Assembly (NCBI GenBank): GCA_943356775.1
Contig: CALRFU010000003.1
Location: 22,308 to 86,307 of the forward strand
Direction of reading: 5' to 3'
DNA from: Candidatus Nomurabacteria bacterium
Lineage (GTDB): Bacteria > Patescibacteriota > Minisyncoccia > Phycocordibacterales > UBA2100
DNA length: 64,000 nt
The notes beneath the pieces were generated by a model. That model searched no databases, was not told the DNA's origin, and saw nothing but the letters and a program-made list of their open reading frames with translations. This document shows, piece after piece, positions 15,628 through 37,319 of the stretch (its first letter is position 1; each line of letters begins with the position of its first letter). The translations under genes and the position numbers were made by a program.

Positions 15628-16291
15628 CTTTGTGTTAGCTCTATGTCGCCATAGAGTTCGGACTATATCTTCATCCGCTTTTTGCGGAGATTGGCGTGTA
15701 GTCTCTGAGGATTCTACCGTGCATTGCCTTTGCGAGCTCTTTCATTTCTTCGAATCCTTTATCCGTGAGATGAGTTTGAGCTTCAAAACGCTTTGCGATA
15801 TCCACGAACCTCTCGAAAGCAAACTTCTTGCTTTTAAAAAGCAATGGGTGCTTCTGAAAGAACGGGATAATCTTTGTCTTGATATCTTTGTAATTCTTTA
15901 CCTGATATTCAAGACAGTTCGAGAATGTTGGTCTTTCATCGATCTTCTTATAAACGATTCCGCAACGGAAGAAGTCACGAATTTCATACAAGATCATTCC
16001 ATCATCCTCTTTCAACTTAACTCCAAACATCAGTCGTACTCTCAAAGACTTGTATGTCTTCGAAAGATCTTGGCTCACGCTGACGGAAAAGTATCCTTCT
16101 CCATCAATGATGCCGACGACATAGTCGGGTGTTAATTTCGGTAGCCTTTCCTGCTGATTGCCTGCACTCAAAGCATTGTCACTCACGGGTACATTTTACC
16201 ACGTGAGTAGCCTGAGATTCTCAGATATTCCAGCATATAGCCAATTTTTTCTCCGGAGATTGCTCTCCGTGGTCGCAACAATTTAATCATA
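15628..16291 (-). mobile_element. Group I intron in 16S rRNA at the position equivalent to E. coli 1506 (GTCGT|AACAAGG)
   Basis: Exon sequence resumes exactly across the insert. Group I R element (TCAGAGACTACA, rc at 15706-15718) and S element (AAGATATAGTCC, rc at 15660-15671) are present near the 3' end. The 5' exon ends in U and the intron ends in G. Confidence 0.75.
15671..16186 (-). CDS. LAGLIDADG homing endonuclease encoded in the 16S intron
   Basis: VVGIIDGEGYFSVSVSQD LAGLIDADG motif. 171 aa. AT-richer than the host genes. Confidence 0.75.
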   Translation of the reverse strand: MSDNALSAGNQQERLPKLTPDYVVGIIDGEGYFSVSVSQDLSKTYKSLRVRLMFGVKLKEDDGMILYEIRDFFRCGIVYKKIDERPTFSNCLEYQVKNYKDIKTKIIPFFQKHPLLFKSKKFAFERFVDIAKRFEAQTHLTDKGFEEMKELAKAMHGRILRDYTPISAKSG

Positions 16292-16844
16292 ACGACTTAC
16301 TCTTTGTCATTGAGTTTGCCTTGGTACATTACGAGAATGTCCTTCGGGCACTCCCAACTTCCCTGAGTTGACGGGCGGTGAGTACAAAGCTTGAGAACGT
16401 ATTCACCGCGGTATGGCTGACCCGCGATTACTAGTGATTCCGGCTTCATGAGGTCGGGTTGCAGACCTCAATCCGAACTGGCGCCGCTTTTGAAAGATTT
16501 GCTCCGGGTTACCCCATTGCGCCTCGTTGTAACGGCGATTGTAGCGCGTGTGCAGCCCAGGACATCAGAGGGACATGCTGACTTGGCGTCATCTCCACCT
16601 TCCTCCCCCGTGAGGGGGCAGTCTCGCCTGATACGTGTAACAGGCAACGAAGGTTGCGTTCGTTACCCCACTGAAGGGAACGATTCAAACCACGAACTGA
16701 CGACAGCCATGCATCACCTGTCCTACACCCTCGAAGGCTTCCTAGCTTTCGCTAGGCGTGCAGTAGGATTTCTAGCCCTGGTAAGGTTCTTCGCTTAGCG
16801 ACGAATTAAGCCACACGCTCCACCACTTGTGCAAGCTCCCGTCT

Positions 16845-16876
<32 letters not shown>

Positions 16877-18180
16877 ACCCAGGCGGTCCGCTTAACGCGT
16901 TAGCTTCGCCTCAGAGAGGGTCGATACTCCCTAAAGCCAGCGGACATAGTTTAGGGCGTGGACTACCGGGGTATCTAATCCCGTTCGCTACCCACGCTTT
17001 CGTGCTTGAGTGTCAGGAACGCGCCAGTGCACTGCCTTCGCTTTCGGTATTCCCCATGATATCAACGGATTTCACCCCTACACCATGAGTTCTATGCACC
17101 TCTCACGCCCTCAAGTCGTGCCGTTTCGCCCGCGGATCCAGGGTTGAGCCCTGGGTTTTGACGGACGACTAACACGACCACCTACGCACTCTTTACGCCC
17201 AGTAATTCCGGGTAACGCTCGGGGCCTCTGTATTACCGCTCCTGCTGGCACAGAGTTAGGAGCCCCTTATTCATGAGGTAATGTCAATAACTTCTTCCCT
17301 CATAAAAGATGTTTACGCGCCGAAGCGCTTCATCCACCACGCGGTATCGCTCGATCAGGCTTTCGCCCATTGTCGAATATTCTCGGCTGCGGCCCCCCGT
17401 AGGGGTATGAGCCGTGTCTCAGTCTCATCGGTGGGGGTCAGCCTCTCAGCTCCCCTAAACGTCATAGCCTTGGTGAGCCATTACCTCACCAACTAGCTGA
17501 TATTACGCAGGCCGCTCCCAGAGCGAATTGCTCCTTTACTCTTACGAGACTATCCGGGATTACCTCACCTTTCGGCGAGCTATACCAGACTCTGGGGGAC
17601 GTTCCTACGTGTTACTACCTCGTCTGCCGGTGACCTTGCGGTCCCCTTGACTTGCATGCCTTATCCATACCGCCAGCGTTCACCCTGAGCTAGGATCAAA
17701 CTCTAAGTAAAGAATGACTCTCGTCATTCCCTCGCGTTTTCACTCGGGCGAAAATGAAAGCATAGCTCTCACCTCGTCTCCTCGCTATTGCGCAATTTAG
17801 AGATGTTAATGCTCTATTTAAGGATGGACGGAACAAAAGAATGTCGAAATCTTCTTTGCAGAAAATTTCGTCTCTCGTTCCAATTACTGTTTATTTACTT
17901 AACCATGAAATCCTCCTGAGACTCCATGATTATTTTCTGTTGTCTTGCTTTACCCTTCGTAGTCACGTCTAGATACACGTGACGAAGTAGGGCTTGTGTG
18001 TGTTTTCTTACCAATACTTTGGTTATGTATTGCGTACAATTGTTCTATTCAGTTTTCAATGTTCGTCCGAAGTCATTCATAGAAGTATTTCGGTGCATCA
18101 GCTCCCTCCCCCTATTTGGGGTCAAGTATGTAGAGGTTCGAGTGAACCTCAGACAAGCCATCAGGAGCGATGGTCGGAAG

Positions 18181-19913: not shown

Positions 19914-19941
19914 AGGCTGACCTGGATGAATCATCGAAGAG

Positions 19942-19972
19942 GGCGGCGATTGCAAAATCGCCGCTTTTCCTT
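19942..19972 (+). terminator. Rho-independent terminator (GGCGGCGATTGCAAAATCGCCGC + TTTTCC)
   Basis: Perfect hairpin followed by a T-run. Confidence 0.5.
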
Positions 19973-19975
19973 TAC

Positions 19976-20004
19976 TTGACGATACGAATCGATGCGGTTA
20001 CACT
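19976..20004 (+). promoter_or_regulatory. Candidate promoter TTGACG-N17-TACACT driving the T-box leader
   Basis: Hexamers with 17-nt spacer, immediately upstream of the leader. Confidence 0.45.
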
Positions 20005-20009
20005 CGACG

Positions 20010-20250
20010 CAGTTAAATCCATTGAGCTAGTTCCTCGCGCAAGCGGGGGTTGGGGCTAGTGAGGAGGTTGCTGCTTGTCCTGAGCGAAGTCGAAGGACGT
20101 GTGGTAATCCGGGCTCTCCCGTAACAGAGATAACCAGTGTCGCTATTAGTTATTTTTGCGGAGCTGGTGAGAAACAATTAAGGTGGCACCGCGAGAAAAT
20201 CGCCCTTATTACACAATTTATTTTTGTGTAGTAAGGGCGGTTTTTGTTTT
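20010..20250 (+). promoter_or_regulatory. T-box riboswitch leader (tRNA-sensing transcription attenuator)
   Basis: Conserved T-box sequence AATTAAGGTGGCACCGCG at 20177-20194, against consensus AAUUAGGGUGGNACCGCG. It is followed at once by a terminator: 14-bp stem CGCCCTTATTACAC/GTGTAGTAAGGGCG at 20201-20239, then GTTTTTGTTTT. The variable base is C, implying a tRNA discriminator G73. The Stem I region (20035-20150) contains candidate specifier loops with Asp codons (GAU at 20129-20131, GAC at 20094-20096). Confidence 0.75.
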
Positions 20251-20336
20251 GGAACTGCGAGTCTGCAACCCGAACGAAAGCGCCGCCAGTGGTTCTTTCG
20301 TTCTTTGAGATGACCATAAACCTTGGGAGTGACCCG

Positions 20337-20618
20337 ATGACAACCTTGTTGGACTGGACGAATCATGGAGGTATCGCATTCATCCTCGCATTCATAGCAG
20401 TCGTGACCGCATTGAGCGGTATCTATGAAAGAACGCGCCCAGTCCGTATTATCGGCAGTGCCCTCGCACTTGCCGTTCTTGCGGCCTTGGCGTACTCGCC
20501 CAAGATGGAGACGACGGCATTCATGATCTATGTCGTATTCTTTTTTCTTGCAGCCGCCGGCGTCCCGCTCCTTCTGCGCGCCATCAAAAAGGCACCGGCC
20601 CACGACTGGGGAATTTAA
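20337..20618 (+). CDS. Small integral membrane protein (93 aa, 3 predicted TM helices)
   Basis: SD GGGAGTG upstream of the ATG. Hydrophobic helices throughout. First gene after the T-box leader. The track ORF 20244-20618 begins at a TTG inside the terminator T-tract and is less likely. Confidence 0.45.
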   Translation: MTTLLDWTNHGGIAFILAFIAVVTALSGIYERTRPVRIIGSALALAVLAALAYSPKMETTAFMIYVVFFFLAAAGVPLLLRAIKKAPAHDWGI

Positions 20619-20631
20619 GGAGGGACTCGTC

Positions 20632-21063
20632 ATGAAAGCAATGCTCTACCACGCAAGCCGTTTTGGTTACGGGGTCGAAAGTCCTTCTGAAAGACTCGGA
20701 GGAGTCGGTCCAGAGAGGGTGAACGGCTCTGCGTCTCTCCTTGTCGAGGAGTGCTACGTTGCGCTCTTCCACGTGGAGGAGGGCGATGGCGAGGCACAAA
20801 TCGGCCGCTTCTGCCATGACGCCCAACGTTTTGCAAAGAAACTGGGGGCGACGAGGTTGGTGGTGGCCGCGTTTGGCCACCTCTCCAGCAACTACGCCCC
20901 AATGGAGATCGCCATCGCGACTTCCGGCCTAATCGTCAACAAATGTCGCGAGGAGTGGACAGGAAAGGGTGGCGAATTCCACACTTCACCCTTCGGCCAC
21001 AATAAAACGCTCACCCTTGAGACAAAAGGTCATCGCGATTCCATCAGGTTTCGCAGCTACTAA
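20632..21063 (+). CDS. Free-standing archaeal-type threonyl-tRNA synthetase editing-domain homolog (DTD-like fold, tRNA-Thr_ED-like)
   Basis: Strong SD AAGGAGGG. Motifs MKAMLYHASRFGY, VALFHVEEGDG, VVAAFGHLSSNYAPMEIA and SPFGHNKTLTLETKGH align with the MRxLLIHSDY / VVFxSVEKxD / YPFAHLSSxLAxP / APFGxYKxFxISCKGHP pattern of archaeal ThrRS N-terminal editing domains. This alignment is recalled from memory, not searched. Confidence 0.5.
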   Translation: MKAMLYHASRFGYGVESPSERLGGVGPERVNGSASLLVEECYVALFHVEEGDGEAQIGRFCHDAQRFAKKLGATRLVVAAFGHLSSNYAPMEIAIATSGLIVNKCREEWTGKGGEFHTSPFGHNKTLTLETKGHRDSIRFRSY

Positions 21064-21125
21064 AAAGTTGGGTTGCTGAGTGATACTATACTCAGCAACC
21101 CGACACCAATACCTCAACACACACT

Positions 21126-21935: not shown

Positions 21936-21966
21936 AAGCCCCTCCCCGGAGGGGCTTTCTGTTTGT
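21936..21966 (+). terminator. Rho-independent terminator (AGCCCCTCCCCGGAGGGGCT + TTCTGTTTGT)
   Basis: GC hairpin plus T-rich tail after the racemase gene. Confidence 0.5.
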
Positions 21967-22129: not shown

Positions 22130-22786
22130 ATGCTGCGCGATAAGACAGGGGCTTCGTTCATCGCAAACCCCGGCGACGAAATTTCCCGCACGACCCCCGC
22201 TACAACGACCGGAAAAGTGCTGCGTATCGGTGTCGCCGGTGTCGAGGGTAGCTTTACCGAAATGGCTGCCAGGATGCACTGCAACGTGGGCGGGCTCAAT
22301 CTCTTCGAGCTGGTCTATCTGACCGCCACCGACAACGTGCTCGTGTCGCTCGAGACCGGCGGCATCGATCGCGCGATTTTCGCGATTGAAAACAGCATCG
22401 GAGGCGTCGTCAGGGAATACCTGCCGGCAATCCTGAAGCACCGTTGCAAATTCGTGACCACCTTCGACTTCGAAGTCGAGCAGGTCTTGATGGTCAATCC
22501 GAAGGTGATGGGCGGGCAGGTCACGGTAATTATTTCGCAAGGACAGGCACTGGCACAGTGTCAGATCCACCTTCGGGAAAACTATCCTGACATCCCCCAG
22601 CGTGACTACATCGACACCGCAACGGCGGCGCGAGACTTGCGCGGAGGCAAGCTCCCCCGCACGGCGGCGGTCGTCGGTTCGCGTGCGGCTGCCAGGCTCT
22701 ACGACCTCGACGTGCTCGCCGGCCCTATCCAGGACAATCAAAAGAACTACACGACGTTCATCGTAGCGGAACGACTGGCGGAGTGA
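22130..22786 (+). CDS. pheA: Prephenate dehydratase catalytic (PDT) domain protein lacking a C-terminal ACT domain
   Basis: AIENSIGGVV, SQGQALAQCQ and KNYTTFIVA match PDT motifs (IENSIEGSV, SHPQALAQC, NxTRFLVL). Only 218 aa, with no ACT regulatory domain. Confidence 0.65.
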   Translation: MLRDKTGASFIANPGDEISRTTPATTTGKVLRIGVAGVEGSFTEMAARMHCNVGGLNLFELVYLTATDNVLVSLETGGIDRAIFAIENSIGGVVREYLPAILKHRCKFVTTFDFEVEQVLMVNPKVMGGQVTVIISQGQALAQCQIHLRENYPDIPQRDYIDTATAARDLRGGKLPRTAAVVGSRAAARLYDLDVLAGPIQDNQKNYTTFIVAERLAE

Positions 22787-22923: not shown

Positions 22924-23676
22924 TCACTCCGCAGATCTTGACTGAAGTACTTGCGCTTCCGCTCGGGCAAGCGCGACGTCCACTTCGGCACAAAACCTGT
23001 TGTACCGCCGGACATCGTTGAACAAATCAGTGTCCTCTTCCACCATCTCCGCGCCGTCTTTCATGGAAGAAAATGACGTCGTGTCGAAAGTGGTCCGCTG
23101 GACACCGGCGGCTTTCCAGATTTGTGAGGTACGGTGTGCGAGATAGAGCGTCCACGCAGATATCCTGTCGTGCTCTTCTGCCGTCATCAACTCGACGACA
23201 AAGCCAAGCCTTTTGACGAACATGAGGAGCGACGCAACAACGTCGGCAGGCATTGAGTGGTCAACCAGCGCTATCTTAAAACCTCGCACGTTGCCGCGGC
23301 GGTTCTTGTAGGCGCCGGGGCCGAAGTTCGGATGACAGCACAGCCAGAAAATCCCTTCCGCGTATTGCCTGAGCAAATTGCGGGTGTGCTCCTTGACCGT
23401 TGCGATGTCGACGATGATTGCAAGCGGATTAAGCCGCTTGATGATAGGGACAATCTCGCGAATCACGTTTTCATATGCACGCGGCGGCACCGACAGCACC
23501 ACCACATCACACATGCAAACCTGTTCGAGAGTTGTGAATACGCCCCCATTTGCCTTCTTCGTGACATCGAACGCACACACTTTTACCTTCGACGCAAAGC
23601 GCCGGATGAGCCGTCGGGCATGACGCCCGAAGTGACCGTCTCCGCCGATAATGCCGATGGTTTTCACCATGACCAT
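22924..23676 (-). CDS. tyrA: Prephenate/arogenate dehydrogenase
   Basis: KTIGIIGGDGHFGR Rossmann N-terminus and TyrA-like core. GC-rich, like pheA. Confidence 0.65.
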   Translation of the reverse strand: MVMVKTIGIIGGDGHFGRHARRLIRRFASKVKVCAFDVTKKANGGVFTTLEQVCMCDVVVLSVPPRAYENVIREIVPIIKRLNPLAIIVDIATVKEHTRNLLRQYAEGIFWLCCHPNFGPGAYKNRRGNVRGFKIALVDHSMPADVVASLLMFVKRLGFVVELMTAEEHDRISAWTLYLAHRTSQIWKAAGVQRTTFDTTSFSSMKDGAEMVEEDTDLFNDVRRYNRFCAEVDVALARAEAQVLQSRSAE

Positions 23677-32407: not shown

Positions 32408-32517
32408 GTGTTGGCGCCGGCCTACTCTCCCTTGCGAGTACCATCGGCTCTGGAGGGCTTAACTGCCGTGTTCGGAATGAGAACGGGTGTAGCCCCTCCG
32501 ACAAAGCACCAACACGG
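32408..32517 (-). rRNA. rrf: 5S ribosomal RNA
   Basis: rc reads GTGTTGGTGCTTTGTCGGAGGGGCTACACCCGTTCTCATTCCGAACACGGCAGTTAAGCCCTCCAGAGCCGATGGTACTCGCAAGGGAGAGTAGGCCGGCGCCAACAC, with helix I closing and loop C/E motifs. Confidence 0.8.
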
Positions 32518-33674
32518 AATGCTCAAACGATATCCGTGTTCGCGGCTAACTAGAAATATGAGGTGTAGCTCACATCCAGAAAGCACCAACACGGAATGCT
32601 CAAATTGAGATTCCGTTCATTGAAACGAAGAGCGATAAGAAAGATTCGAAAACAATGTACCCTACTACGCTCCTCTCGGAGCTTCGAAGGGCAATGCGCG
32701 ACTCTCACAATTCCTTTCGAGAGTTCTGTCGGCGGATTAGTACACCTCGGCTACACGCATTGCTGCGCTTCCACCTGGTGCCTATCAACGTGGTCATCTC
32801 CCACGAGCCTCAAACGATTTCTGATCTTGGAGTTGGTTTCCCGCTTAGATGCTTTCAGCGGTTATCCTTTCCCGACATAGCTACGGGGCGATGCCACTGG
32901 TGTGACAGCCCCCAGACCAGAGGTCAGTTCATTTCGGTCCTCTCGTACTAGAAACGAATCTCCTCAAAAATCAACGCCTGCAGCAGATTAAGACCAACCT
33001 GTCTCACGACGGTCTGAACCCAGCTCACGTACCTTTTTAAATGGCGAACAGCCATACCTTTGGGACCTTCTCCAGCCCCGGGATAAGATGAGCCGACATC
33101 GAGGTGCCGAACTTCGCCGTCGATTTGGACTCTTAGGCGAAACCAGCCTGTTATCCCCAGAGTAACTTTTATCCGTTAATCTTCGGCCGCATCTAATGCG
33201 GACCGTCGGTTCACTATGCTCCGCTTTCGCGCCTGCTTGTCATGTACGACTCACAGTCAAGCCGCCTTTTGCCATTACACTATCGGCACGGTTTCCATTC
33301 GCGCCTAGGCGACCATAATAGGCTCCTCCGTTACTTTTTAGGAGGACAGCGCCCCACCGAAACTGTCCATCAGGTACTGTCTCTCTTGGGTTTCTCCCAA
33401 GAGGTTAGAACATACAGAAACGTAGGATGGTATTGCACTGGCGACTCCACCACAACCGAGATCATGGCTTCAAAGTCTCCCATCTATGCTACGCAACGCA
33501 CCCGTATATTCAATACCAAATTACAGTAAAGCTTCTGGGGTCTTTTCGTCTTGCTGCAGGAAGGCGGCATCTTCACCGCCCTTGTATTTTCACCAAGCAA
33601 ATCCCCGAGACAGTTCCCAACTCATTATACCATTCGTGCGCGTCTGAACTTACCAGACAAGGAATTTCGCTAGT

Positions 33675-34446
33675 TGTCAATCCACACATCGCTGTGCGGA
33701 ACGAACTCTATCTTCAAACAAGCACCGCTTGTTTGTCTGACGTGTGGTTTCTGGGGATTCTCTTAAAGTCGTCAACGACGTCTTGTTTTTCGTATTTCCG
33801 CTTCCTTCCCTTTCCTTCGTTAAGTTTTTCTCGCAATTCAATGATTCTCATAAACCCCTTGCGAGCAAGATGCTCTCCGGAGTATACGATCATCGCAATT
33901 TGTTTGAACAGCGCGAAGTTTCTGGTTTTGGATTCGGATTGAAAAGGAAACCGCTCAAAGAACGGGAATACCTTTTCTACGAGTTCGACGTAATTTGTCA
34001 CCACAAAGTAATGGACTCCATCACTTCGTCTTTGTAACCTACCGCACTGCAAATGTTTTTGCAAAAGCAGAAGATTGGTGACATCTCGTTGGGCTACATT
34101 GAAGGTGAGAACTACCTGCCATTGGAGTTTGTGATCCGGTCTTTGGCGGAGAGAAACACTGAAGCTTCCCTCGCCATCACTGAATCCTGACAAATACCAA
34201 CCCAAACTTTGGGAATTGATTGGCGGTGTGTTCATACGTCCAATTATAGCACCTGATTTCAAGAGTCTTTCCTGCTGATTGTCCGCACTTCAAGATTGTT
34301 ACTGTCTTGCGACTAGTACTTGAAGATACTCGGATTTCCCAGCATATGGTCAGATGTTTAAAGACATTTTGCTTTCGCAAAATAGGCAGCGTTCATGAGG
34401 ATAACCGTCCCAGTCCTTCCGCCACCCTCGTATTGAGAGGGGCGAA
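33675..34446 (-). mobile_element. Group I intron B in 23S domain IV (about E. coli position 1931, between CCTAAGGT and AGCGAAATTCC), carrying a LAGLIDADG ORF
   Basis: Exon segments CGTCCTAAGGT (34447-34457) and TAGCGAAATTCC (33661-33672) flank the insert. Degenerate R/S-like elements sit near 33730-33790. Shares the 90-bp 5' element with intron A. Boundaries are good to about 5 nt. Confidence 0.65.
33714..34262 (-). CDS. LAGLIDADG homing endonuclease encoded in 23S intron B
   Basis: LGWYLSGFSDGEGSFSVSLRQRPD LAGLIDADG motif, 182 aa. Confidence 0.7.
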   Translation of the reverse strand: MKSGAIIGRMNTPPINSQSLGWYLSGFSDGEGSFSVSLRQRPDHKLQWQVVLTFNVAQRDVTNLLLLQKHLQCGRLQRRSDGVHYFVVTNYVELVEKVFPFFERFPFQSESKTRNFALFKQIAMIVYSGEHLARKGFMRIIELREKLNEGKGRKRKYEKQDVVDDFKRIPRNHTSDKQAVLV

Positions 34447-34460
34447 ACCTTAGGACGATT

Positions 34461-34913
34461 CTCCTTTGTTAATCTGCTCGCGAATTAACAGTAGCTACGA
34501 GCAACTCTCTATGTCGCCATAGAGGCCGGACTATATCATCTCTGCTTTTGCAGAGTCCGACGTATAGTCTCTGAGGATTCTTGTGAACTTCAGTGAAAAA
34601 ACTATGCCTGTTTGTCCGGGTACATTAAATGAGTAACCACTGCTGCGATTGCAAGCGCAGCAAACGATACCCACGAACCCCTCAAACCTAAGAAATAGGA
34701 AACAAGAAGTAATCCTGCGCCAACCGCTCCAAAAATGAGCGATTTCTTCCAGGTTATTTTCATGTTTCTACTCTAGCACACTTTTCTCAATGAAGTTCAC
34801 AAGTCTTTCCTGCTGATTGTCCGCACTTCAAGATTTTCACTGCCTTGCGGCTAGTACTTGAAGATACTCGGAGTTTCCAGCATTTGGTCGGATTTTATAA
34901 CTACAATCATCTT
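34461..34913 (-). mobile_element. Group I intron A in 23S (about E. coli position 1915-1917, after AACTAT), no intact endonuclease ORF
   Basis: Exon GCGATAACTAT ends at 34914. Exon resumes as AATCGTCCTAAGGT at 34460-34447. R element TCAGAGACTATACG and S element AGATGATATAGTCC are present (rc of 34506-34582). Only a 53-aa hydrophobic ORF lies inside. Confidence 0.6.
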
Positions 34914-36338
34914 ATAGTTATCGCCGACATTGACCGGGGCTTATGTAGCGCCAGCCTTCATTCTTGCGAACGAAGACCGACCACATTTGACCTTCCGGCA
35001 TTGGTCAGGCATCACCCCCTATACATCCTCTTACGAGTTCGCAGGGAGCTGTGTTTTTGGTAAACAGTTGGTTGGGAAATTTTAACTGCGGCCCTTCTTG
35101 CGAAGGGCGGACCTTATCCCGAAGTTACGGTCGCTTTTTTGCCGAGTTCCTTGGGGATCTCTCACTTGTTCGCCTTACTCTACTCGAGCTGAACACCTGT
35201 GTCGGTTTGCGGTACGGTCCGCGCATGTTTATGCTTAGAGGTTTTTCTTGGAAGCGCGCTCTCTTGAATCTGCTTCGGCCGAGGCCTCCACATTTCCACT
35301 TCGCTCGGACTATAGGAACCGGATTTACCTGGCTCCCATCCTCACGACATGAACCCAAAACCAATAATGGGCCCAAGATACAGCACTCCGTCCCCCCGTC
35401 GCAACATGCGCAGGTCATGGAATATTAACCATGTGTCCATCGCCTTCGGCATTCGCCATCGGCTTAGGCCCGACTAACCCTTCGATGATCTCCATTGCGA
35501 AGGAAACCTTGTTCTTTCGGCGTGCGAGAATCTCACTCGCATTGCGGTTACTCGTGCCAACATTTTCACTTCTGTACGCTCCAGCATGGGTCACCCCTTT
35601 GCCTTCATTGCAAACAGAACGCTCTCCTACCACTTCACTTTCCCGAAGGAAAGAAAAATCCGCATCTTCGGTATCACGCTTAGCCCCGATCATTTGTGGC
35701 GCAAGATCTCTAAGTGAGTGAGCTGTTACGCTTTCTTTGAATGGTGGCTGCTTCTAAGCCAACATCCTCACTGTCTCTGAAATCTTACCTCCTTATTTGC
35801 ACTTAGCGTAAATTTTGGGACCTTAGATGGCGATCTGGGCTGTTTCCCTTTTGACCAACGGAGCTTCGCCCCCGTAGTCTAACTGCCGCGCTATTACCTC
35901 TGGTATTCGGAGTTTGATAGAGGCAGTGGTCTTTCGACCTATCCGCTTCTTCCAGTGCTCTACCCCCAGAGGGAACACACGACGCAAGCCCGAAAGCTTT
36001 TTCGGAGAGAACCAGCTATTACAACGTTCGATAAGCTTTTCACTCCAACCCACAAGTCATCCCAGGATGTTGCACAATCCAAGGGTTCGGCCCTCCATCT
36101 CTATTTCTAGAAACTTCAGCCTGCTCATGGGTAGCTCACGTTGCTTCGGGTCTGATACAAACGACAAACGCGCTATTCACACTCGCTTTCGCTACGGCTC
36201 CATGCTTTGTCGCACTTAGCCAAGCCGTTTGCATCAACTCGTTGGCTCATTCTTCAATAGGCACGCTGTCGAGGACATTGCTGCCCTCTTCAACTCCTTG
36301 TAGACATGTGGTTTCAGTTCTATTTCACTCCCCTCACC

Positions 36339-36381
<43 letters not shown>

Positions 36382-37319
36382 ATCTGAAGAAGTATGTAGC
36401 ATTACCGGTTAGTCCCGGCGAATTCACCCGAGCTATTCATGTCTCGAGCTACTCAAGAACTACAGCCATAGAGATGCTTTGATTTCGAGTACGGGGCTAT
36501 TACCCTCTGGGGCTCTGCTTCCCAGCAGATTCCTCTATCTAAGCATTTTTTTACTCTACCTATTGCTAGCGCTGTAGCCTTATAACCCCCATCCCCAAAA
36601 TCGACTCGCAAAATCTACTTTTGGTAAACTTGTGCGCTTCGATTTTGTGGCTGAGTTTGTGCTTTTCCCGTTTCGCTCGCCGCTACTAAGGGAATACCTA
36701 TTGGTCTCTTTTCCTCTCGGTACTGAAATGTTTTACTTCCCGAGGTCTGCTCTCTCAAACGTTTAAGTTGAGAGTTATCAAGGATTACTTGATAGGGTTG
36801 CCCCATTCGGAAATCTCCGGGTATAACGATTGCTTGGCATCTTACCGGAGCTTATCGCAGCTAAGCCGCGTCCTTCATCGCCTTCTTCAGTCTAGGCATC
36901 CACCACACGCCCTTACTCAGAACTCCCGCTAGGAATTCTAAGAACCGCGTATTGCACGCATCCCCTACAAGAGGGACACGTGACTTTGTTTTCTTGCCGC
37001 TTTTTTAGAAAGGAACGGCATCCTTTTTTGCTTTGTGTTTTTACAGCTACGTCTCATTCAGCAGAATGACCTACTGGGTTAAGACGCAGCATCCTGCATC
37101 TCACTTCGGTAGACTACACCGAAATAAGATTTTATTCTTCTTGTCCACCGTAGCCTTTCGACCACAGCGGATTTCTTTCTTTCTCGCTCTTCAATTTTCA
37201 ACGATCTACGTACAAGTCACGAAAAAAGCCGCTTGAAAGCGGCCTGGTCGCAGAGCTTGGGAGCTCGGCTACCTGTGCCACTTCGTGAAGCTTTTAAGCG
37301 ATAACATATACGTCGAAAG

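Follow-up and report, generated by a model that had tools for sequence, protein, structure and literature searches.

The DTD-like fold is known from three branches, namely DTD, the N-terminal editing domain (NTD) of archaeal threonyl-tRNA synthetase (ThrRS) and animal ATD, and the side-chain-independent mechanism of the NTD has been argued to have barred the fold from new functional contexts (PMC4491819). Proteins with this fold work via main-chain atoms and the 2′-OH of the tRNA (PMC3845328, PMC4491819). We analyzed a 64,000-nucleotide stretch of DNA (the window) from Candidatus Nomurabacteria bacterium that encodes a stand-alone homolog of the archaeal NTD, which we call ED, in an apparent operon with a racemase gene and a divergent T-box leader (Table 1). 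Bacterial 16S, 23S and 5S rRNA genes occur in the window, and the host is a bacterium of the Candidate Phyla Radiation (CPR), also called Patescibacteria. We tentatively propose, at somewhat less than an even chance, that this is a CPR operon induced by tryptophan (Trp) starvation, in which the racemase converts D-Trp to L-Trp and ED clears D-Trp-tRNATrp.

An archaeal-type editing domain in bacteria

The ED gene encodes 143 amino acids, and a GGAGGG Shine-Dalgarno sequence lies 8 nucleotides 5′ of its ATG start codon. ED matches the Pfam family PF08915 (tRNA-Thr_ED), whose title is "Archaea-specific editing domain of threonyl-tRNA synthetase", with 60.8 bits (E=2e-16, cutoff 30.2). The match extends over ED residues 1-135 and model positions 1-129 of 137. 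Among PDB sequences, phmmer retrieved archaeal ThrRS editing domains only (A. pernix 4rr6/4rrl, E~1e-6; P. abyssi 1y2q, 6e-4). In NCBIfam, solely the N-termini of the archaeal ThrRS and crenarchaeal Ser-tRNA(Thr) hydrolase models were matched, far under the whole-protein cutoffs.

An AlphaFold2 model of ED was built from a 49-homolog alignment (pLDDT 94.9); a single-sequence model was poor (pLDDT 46) and was discarded. The best Foldseek matches to the model are the editing domains of P. abyssi, A. pernix and M. jannaschii (E~1e-13, TM 0.82-0.87, rmsd 1.7-2.7 Å), with a TM of 0.87 and an rmsd of 1.7 Å to 1y2q, 3pd4 and 2hl1. DTD and ATD rank next (TM 0.65-0.70), and nothing else is significant. 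The first-pass annotation of this stretch had recognized a stand-alone archaeal-type ThrRS editing-domain homolog in a bacterium from short motifs, and had suggested comparing a structural model with ThrRS editing domains and DTD. The Pfam, PDB and Foldseek results all bear out this assignment, and the motif resemblance is true homology.

By sequence, ED differs from DTD. A Pfam scan found no match to PF02580 (DTD) in the ED protein of the window. The DTD motifs are SQFTL and NxGPVT, the latter containing the cross-subunit Gly-cisPro (PMC5802732). Both are absent from ED, where the aligned segments read AAFGHLS and KGHRDS.

The active site of the archaeal domain has been studied in P. abyssi, where Pro80, Phe81, Ala82, His83, Tyr120 and Lys121, together with Glu134 of the other subunit, lie within 6 Å of the scissile bond (PMC4491819). 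The H83A and K121M variants are inactive, and Tyr120 and Glu134, which belong to the serine pocket, are dispensable for discriminating Ser from Thr (PMC4491819). Phe117 is the invariant adenine-stacking residue of the DTD-like fold (PMC3845328). In the CPR clade (49 sequences), F81, H83, F121 (P. abyssi F117) and K125 (P. abyssi K121) are invariant or nearly so. By contrast, the residues of the serine pocket are exchanged: Pro80 corresponds to A80, Ala82 to G82, Tyr120 to N124 and Glu134 to V/I138. The invariant residues H47, D52, G82, N124 and D136 are peculiar to the clade. Since core residues are kept while pocket residues differ, the A76-binding and catalytic core appears to be retained, and the amino-acid pocket appears to be remodelled toward smaller or hydrophobic side chains. 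We suggest that the remodelled pocket could accommodate an indole. The earlier idea that ED acts in trans on D- or mis-acylated tRNA is kept as the most reasonable activity of this putative deacylase.

The first-pass annotation expected a bacterial, T-box-regulated copy beside a racemase to be unusual. ED is no isolated case: it belongs to a conserved CPR gene pair, and NCBI already names some of the relatives after the domain ("threonyl-tRNA synthetase editing domain-containing protein"). Two word-indexed searches found about 55 stand-alone relatives of 127-172 amino acids that are 34-63% identical to the query, along with two outliers at 25-27%; PF08915 is present in all 55. The named relatives are all from CPR/Patescibacteria, namely Liptonbacteria, Yanofskybacteria, Nomurabacteria, Paceibacterota, Parcubacteria and one metagenome-assembled genome (MAG) labelled Saccharibacteria, and the identical ED protein is present in the MAG GCA_943355125.1. 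An exhaustive HMMER search of 1.84 billion representative sequences gave 659 matches at E<=1e-3 in three tiers: 7 representatives with E<=1e-30 that correspond to the CPR ED clade, other stand-alone proteins of about 138 amino acids, and full-length archaeal ThrRS. Scans of metagenomes and genomes for additional ED loci yielded 4 and 6, respectively.

Several stand-alone lineages of the NTD scaffold exist. One distant stand-alone ED-like form comes from a Woesearchaeota (DPANN) archaeon. Another, of 139 amino acids, belongs to a different clade and is located on a bacterial contig (L027:8001-8420) directly 3′ of cysS and before a 192-amino-acid gene of unknown function, with no racemase. Faint PF02580 matches occur in some of these related proteins.

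Leaders and the sensed amino acid

The first-pass annotation took ED to be T-box-regulated. A T-box-like leader is indeed located upstream, and its Rfam match is sub-threshold only: a permissive local scan matched RF00230 with 40.7 bits (E=1.9e-7), where the gathering score is 93, and an Rfam scan of the window at the gathering threshold found no T-box. In T-boxes, the specifier lies in a side bulge with a purine after it, and a UGGN bulge pairs with the NCCA end of the tRNA (PMC7583486). Stem I of the window leader is short (20026-20060) and combines a GA (K-turn) motif with a side-bulge specifier that precedes a purine; a Stem II and IIA/B-like region then follows. The specifier bulge is GUUGGGG (20049-20055) and contains the Trp codon UGG at 20051-20053. 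The T-box sequence, AAGG-UGGCACC-GCG...CGC-CCUU (20180-20205), has a 7-nucleotide bulge whose first four positions are UGGC (20184-20187).

The intrinsic terminator, which competes with the antiterminator, dominates both the minimum free energy and centroid folds, and the leader as a whole has a z of -4.7. A homologous T-box leader occurs in one of the other ED loci (L010:5672-5910). Between the two, 5 of the 11 Stem I base pairs show compensatory changes, and the GUUGGGG bulge is unchanged. The distal platform of Stem I, formed by interdigitated T-loops, is absent; in its place, 25 nucleotides (versus 76 in the model) form a 6-bp hairpin with a GCAA loop. The distal double-T-loop platform contacts the tRNA elbow, and is essential in transcriptional T-boxes according to the review literature.

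Which tRNA is recognized can be judged from the specifier and the discriminator base. G73 is the discriminator identity base of bacterial tRNATrp, and tRNAGly has U73. Because UGG followed by G fits tRNATrp, and UGGC is complementary to G73-CCA, we read the specifier as UGG and not as GGG. A Gly (GGG) specifier was set aside, since tRNAGly with U73 would call for a UGGA bulge where the leader has UGGC, and since the orthologs use Trp leaders. Although G73 is shared by the tRNAs for Asp, Asn, Ser, Glu and Gln, the specifier bulge contains no codon for any of these amino acids. Together, the sequence features and the comparative evidence clearly mark this leader as a predicted sensor of uncharged tRNATrp.

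Eleven other loci lack a T-box, and have instead a short leader open reading frame (ORF) followed by an intrinsic terminator. Twelve leader peptides contain Trp codons. Six of these have tandem Trp codons (L005, L006, L007, L008, L014 and L026), L012 has the sequence W-R-W, and single Trp codons, often beside Tyr, occur in L013, L018, L022 and, twice, in L024. Trp accounts for 6.5% of the residues in the leaders versus 0.9% in the long ORFs of the same loci. WW occurs in 6 of the 12 leaders versus 8 of 550 control small ORFs, the 8 probably including the six leaders themselves (P ~8e-9). We also folded the leaders with the ribosome masked at the Trp codons and then at the stop codon, which is a crude model. 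With the ribosome at Trp, the terminator gives way to an antiterminator in six leaders (L005, L008, L013, L018, L026 and one of the two in L024).

The genes near the pair are in keeping with these leaders. Six loci (L005, L007, L012, L023, L024 and L026) have an adjacent TrpR-like gene, whose best NCBIfam model is TIGR01321 with a score slightly short of the cutoff. The arrangement in L024 and L026 runs from trpS (TIGR00233, 284 bits) through the TrpR-like gene and the leader to the ED-racemase pair. Genes related to aromatic amino acids also recur near the pair, namely those for prephenate dehydratase and dehydrogenase in the window (22130-22786 (+) and 22924-23676 (-)), chorismate mutase (L008:7284-7664) and PheRS (L007:7573-10616), and Tyr/Phe-rich leader peptides occur in several loci (FWYY, YYW, YYF). 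We found no codon signal for Thr or Ser and no Asp signal in any locus, and no thrS in the window or in any ED locus searched. A search of the window for dtd, thrS, trpS and trpR gave none; it covers the window only, not the rest of the genome.

Given the UGG specifier, the match of UGGC to G73, the Trp leaders and the TrpR-like and trpS neighbours, the sensed amino acid is predicted to be tryptophan, not Thr, Ser or Asp. The Thr/Ser or aspartate connection that had been expected for this operon was therefore not borne out, as the T-box, leaders and neighbours all point to Trp.

The leader regions contain further RNA structures. In the window, a second hairpin followed by GUUCUUU is located after the T-box terminator and is shared with L010 (Table 1). 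The heptamer GTTCTTT also occurs just 3′ of the leader terminators in many loci (L013, L018, L022, L024, L026). Between the leader terminator and the ED start codon, three loci have a conserved structured RNA of about 130 nucleotides (L018:1240-1378, L024:3061-3192, L023:4844-5003) that consists of a P1 helix AAAUACGCCA/UGGCGUAUUU, an internal UUGGAGGG and a hairpin GAGCCCUCC...GGAGGGCUC. Rfam scans of the L018 and L024 copies, and of the leader regions in L022 and L026, gave no match. This RNA may be a second, translational, riboregulator.

In the window, a small predicted membrane protein is encoded between the leader and ED. Its start codon could be ATG at 20310 or 20337, while the gene caller chose GTG at 20289, and it belongs to no Pfam or NCBIfam family. 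L007 has a 96-amino-acid hydrophobic ORF with three predicted membrane segments at the same position (L007:5714-6004), and most loci have no such ORF. We rejected the small membrane protein as a conserved part of the operon, since the window and L007 ORFs are not detectably related; the L007 ORF likewise has no family match.

The racemase partner and the proposed function

A PF01177 Asp/Glu-family racemase gene adjoins ED in all 13 loci that are readable on both sides, among 14 non-redundant loci retrieved. The adjacency was seen in the window and in L005-L008, L010, L013, L014, L018, L020, L022, L023, L024 and L026; the neighbourhoods of the pair are otherwise unrelated between loci. The racemase is usually 62-89 nucleotides downstream of ED, and is upstream in L018, L022 and L024. 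The sole exception to the pairing is L025, whose ED is an outlier at 27% identity.

The spacer between the two genes contains a stable hairpin in the window (Table 1), and a comparable hairpin of about 15-17 bp, likewise lacking a U-tract, is present in the spacer of every locus (L005-L008, L010, L013, L014, L020, L023, L026). Across 8 loci, 12 of its 15 base pairs show compensatory changes. This covariation supports the predicted co-transcription of the pair and points to a conserved RNA element, which could serve RNA processing or stability or could bind a protein.

The window racemase matches PF01177 (49.4 bits, cutoff 31) and has both catalytic cysteines, in MVCNT and AGCTE, aligned with Cys82 and Cys194 of 1JFL. 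It does not reach any equivalog: it scores 75.9 against TIGR00035, under the cutoff of 93.1, and its best equivalog match is cysteate racemase, far under cutoff. In the P. horikoshii aspartate racemase (AspR), the residues binding the aspartate beta-carboxylate are, we assume, Arg48 of the PDR motif and Lys164. Arg48 is replaced by Leu (PEL) in one type of ED-associated racemase, type A, and by variable residues in the other, type B. Type A is found in the window, L010, L013 and L020, and type B in L005-L008, L014, L018, L022-L024 and L026. The first-pass annotation placed an aspartate racemase next to ED. A racemase-family gene does share the operon, but the aspartate identity did not hold up: because of the sub-cutoff TIGR00035 score and the replaced PDR Arg, "aspartate racemase" is best read as a family label only, and other loci have a different subfamily at this position.

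Types A and B are about 25% identical, and are no closer to one another than either is to the P. horikoshii aspartate racemase. Their ED partners are nonetheless 40-62% identical to one another, and the occurrence of the two types at the same position beside orthologous ED is an apparent case of non-orthologous replacement. Since ED orthologs are conserved while the racemases belong to two subfamilies, the linkage of ED appears to be to racemase activity and not to one gene lineage. In L023, an AlaX-like alanyl-tRNA trans-editing gene (L023:6289-6975) is located directly 3′ of the racemase and is followed by the TrpR-like gene, so two genes of tRNA-editing type occur in one cluster.

In the mechanism that we propose, uncharged tRNATrp on the T-box would allow readthrough into the genes for the small membrane protein, ED and the two-cysteine racemase. 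With L-Trp scarce, the racemase would turn scavenged D-Trp into L-Trp. The intracellular ratio of D-Trp to L-Trp would be high, such that tryptophanyl-tRNA synthetase (TrpRS) could charge D-Trp. ED would bind the 3′ end of the tRNA via its adenine-stacking Phe and His/Lys core, and would hydrolyse D-Trp-tRNATrp by the RNA-assisted mechanism of the fold. As an outcome, tRNATrp would be freed and D-Trp kept out of proteins. ED would be an amino-acid-dedicated, inducible chiral proofreader that was re-specified from archaeal Ser-tRNAThr editing. As a precedent, dtd-deficient E. coli suffers from D-Trp toxicity, and DTD acts on D-Trp-tRNATrp (PMC1807948). NozR, a homolog of Asp/Glu racemases, acts on cyclo-Trp-Trp (PMC10156859).

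Several points weigh against this proposal. D-selectivity is something that we purely infer for ED, because the amino acid removed by the archaeal domain (Ser) is an L-isomer and ED lacks the Gly-cisPro motif that confers D-selectivity on DTD. A deacylase that acts on tRNATrp during Trp starvation would also need to spare L-Trp-tRNATrp. We know of no free-tryptophan racemase in the Asp/Glu superfamily. The T-box of the window is far under the Rfam gathering score and has no distal Stem I platform, and its specifier can formally also be read as GGG (Gly). As to the leader peptides, that of L023 has Tyr/Phe and no Trp, several others have a single Trp beside Tyr (FWYY, YYW), and the signal may be aromatic amino acids more broadly. 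Switching under the masked ribosome was seen in only about half of the leaders, and in none of those of L006, L007, L012, L014 and L022.

We considered four other explanations. Unlikely, but deserving consideration, is that ED is a general D-aminoacyl-tRNA deacylase that substitutes for DTD in CPR bacteria, and is Trp-regulated only because it travels with a salvage racemase. The main-chain/2′-OH mechanism allows low side-chain specificity (PMC3845328, PMC4491819), related bacterial stand-alone proteins occur in other contexts (such as that after cysS in L027), some with faint PF02580 matches, and some leaders are aromatic-rich rather than purely Trp. However, control by a tRNATrp-sensing attenuator in about 13 lineages, or a place in trpS-trpR clusters, would be surprising for a housekeeping chiral proofreader, and the clade signature of H47, G82, N124 and D136 suggests a defined pocket.

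It is improbable that ED is not a tRNA enzyme at all and serves Trp salvage as a small-molecule hydrolase of aminoacyl or Trp esters, or by partnering the racemase in a structural or regulatory way. This would fit the strict pairing with the racemase across a conserved short spacer, the many repurposed domains generally known from CPR genomes, and the Asp/Glu racemase family's capacity to take substrates that are not amino acids, such as cyclo-Trp-Trp. It would not explain the complete or nearly complete conservation of the residues that place A76 and the catalytic water (the adenine-stacking Phe and the His/Lys core), and the AlaX-like neighbour in L023 and the trpS neighbours in L024 and L026 also speak for a role on tRNA.

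We give still less credence to the view that ED edits L-amino acids or analogs misattached to tRNATrp when Trp is scarce, as a trans-editing factor for TrpRS, with the racemase playing an unrelated role. The archaeal parent domain does edit an L-amino acid, mischarging generally rises when the cognate amino acid is limiting, and the control of the operon by Trp would be explained. This view leaves the obligatory racemase partner, drawn from two subfamilies, without an explanation, and we know of no natural near-cognate mischarging problem for TrpRS.

Least credible is the first-pass annotation's suggestion of a trans-acting Ser-tRNAThr editing factor, as in Crenarchaeota, that is co-transcribed with an aspartate racemase: it accounts for the homology and fold shared with archaeal ThrRS editing domains and for the retained catalytic core, but the specifier bulge offers UGG or GGG rather than ACN or UCN, the discriminator match is to G73, orthologs have Trp leaders and TrpR/trpS neighbours with no Thr/Ser signal and no adjacent thrS in any locus, the serine-pocket residues (P. 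abyssi Tyr120, Glu134, Ala82) are replaced, and the racemase lacks the PDR Arg of AspR.

Returning to our proposal that ED clears D-Trp-tRNATrp, its evolutionary form is that CPR bacteria acquired the archaeal NTD branch and re-specified it from L-Ser-tRNAThr to D-Trp-tRNATrp, within a starvation-inducible module for D-Trp salvage and dedicated chiral proofreading that includes a tryptophan racemase and is coupled directly to the charging of tRNATrp. We regard this scenario as possible, with confidence clearly below even.

The remaining features of the operon are listed in Table 1. Elsewhere in the window, the 16S rRNA gene (16255-17711) is unlinked from the 23S-5S genes (32409-36928), which are about 15 kb away. 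The 23S match is 4.2 kb long and contains a group I intron at 34507-34923, and a LAGLIDADG endonuclease ORF (~15671-16186) lies just past the 3′ end of the 16S gene.

Table 1. Features of the ED operon and its surroundings; positions are those of the window
Feature	Position	Strand	Basis or remark
Terminator-like hairpin of upstream gene	19939-19968		
Promoter-like site TTGACG-17-TACACT	19976..20004	+	Consensus match only, 9/12; just 5′ of the T-box match
Divergent T-box leader	20013..20210	+	RF00230, local search
Predicted intrinsic terminator of the T-box	20197..20243	+	20-bp stem, then T-run; 5′ arm shares sequence with the antiterminator's 3′ half
Second hairpin, GAACGAAAG...CUUUCGUUC, then GUUCUUU	20268..20312	+	After the T-box terminator; common to L010 (5930-5965) in alignment
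Small predicted membrane protein, three hydrophobic segments	20310..20618	+	ORF list
ED: putative aminoacyl-tRNA deacylase, stand-alone archaeal-type ThrRS editing-domain homolog (NTD, DTD-like fold)	20632..21063	+	PF08915, PDB sequence matches, AlphaFold2/Foldseek
ED-racemase intergenic hairpin, 16 bp, no U-tract	21067..21104	+	dG ~ -28 kcal/mol
Two-cysteine Asp/Glu-family racemase, proposed substrate Trp or aromatic amino acids	21126..21800	+	PF01177, Cys motifs
Terminator-like hairpin at operon end	21936..21957	+	9-bp GC-rich stem, then T-run

Comparison with known systems

The fold family, the idea of trans-editing and the domain-based database names are already known. In a literature search, we found no description of a bacterial NTD-type clade, of its pairing with racemases of two subfamilies, or of interchangeable control by tRNATrp or Trp. 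The fold would gain a new functional context from a bacterial NTD clade that is firmly tied to a racemase and to the sensing of tRNATrp. Such a clade would connect D-amino-acid metabolism with translational quality control through a single regulated operon, and would suggest how ultra-small, auxotrophic CPR cells exploit the D-amino acids of their neighbours. The loci would provide testable candidates for two activities, Trp racemization and substrate-specific chiral proofreading. If our proposal is true, ED would be the first regulated chiral proofreader dedicated to one amino acid and would give the NTD scaffold its first new function, and its partner would be the first racemase of free Trp in the Asp/Glu superfamily. 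The same operon is apparently controlled by a T-box, by leader-peptide attenuation or probably by TrpR, depending on the lineage, which would be a clean natural case of regulator swapping.

The archaeal ThrRS NTD (PF08915; 1Y2Q, 4RR6 of A. pernix ThrRS2 and 4RRF of M. jannaschii) resembles ED in fold (TM 0.82-0.87) and length, with about 23% identity, and has in common with it the A76-stacking Phe, His83, Lys121 and the HLS and PFG motifs. By contrast, ED is a stand-alone protein of 143 amino acids that occurs in CPR bacteria and never beside thrS, and it has an altered pocket, a racemase partner and predicted control by tRNATrp or Trp.

The split ThrRS of Crenarchaeota (ThrRS-ed) also has an archaeal-type editing domain apart from the catalytic ThrRS and acting in trans. 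ThrRS-ed keeps C-terminal domains derived from ThrRS and serves ThrRS, whereas ED is a bare domain in a Trp context.

DTD (PF02580) is likewise a stand-alone, trans-acting protein with the DTD-like fold, has D-Trp-tRNATrp among its substrates and protects against D-Trp (PMC1807948). Unlike ED, it is constitutive and has no link to a racemase or to Trp regulation, and ED has no significant PF02580 match.

P. horikoshii has a D-amino-acid cluster that encodes the BAR racemase, a transporter and the DARP regulator (PMC13628549). This archaeon grows on D-amino acids including D-Trp; the racemase gene is repressed by the L-Ile-bound regulator, and D-allo-Ile releases this repression when L-Ile is lacking (PMC13628549). 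As proposed for the window operon, lack of the L-amino acid turns on the racemase, and a small membrane protein or transporter is included. The P. horikoshii racemase differs in that it is PLP-dependent, is under the control of a protein repressor and has no deacylase partner.

Finally, the leaders resemble known Trp T-boxes and trp-type attenuators. The window leader has the UGG specifier, the UGGC bulge and the terminator/antiterminator arrangement, and its orthologs have tandem Trp codons followed by alternative hairpins. Compared with known Trp T-boxes, that of the window is of the transcriptional kind but has an intermediate Stem I, no distal double-T-loop platform and an Rfam score far under the threshold. 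Instead of Trp biosynthesis, transport or trpS, the genes that these leaders appear to regulate are the editing-domain homolog and its racemase.

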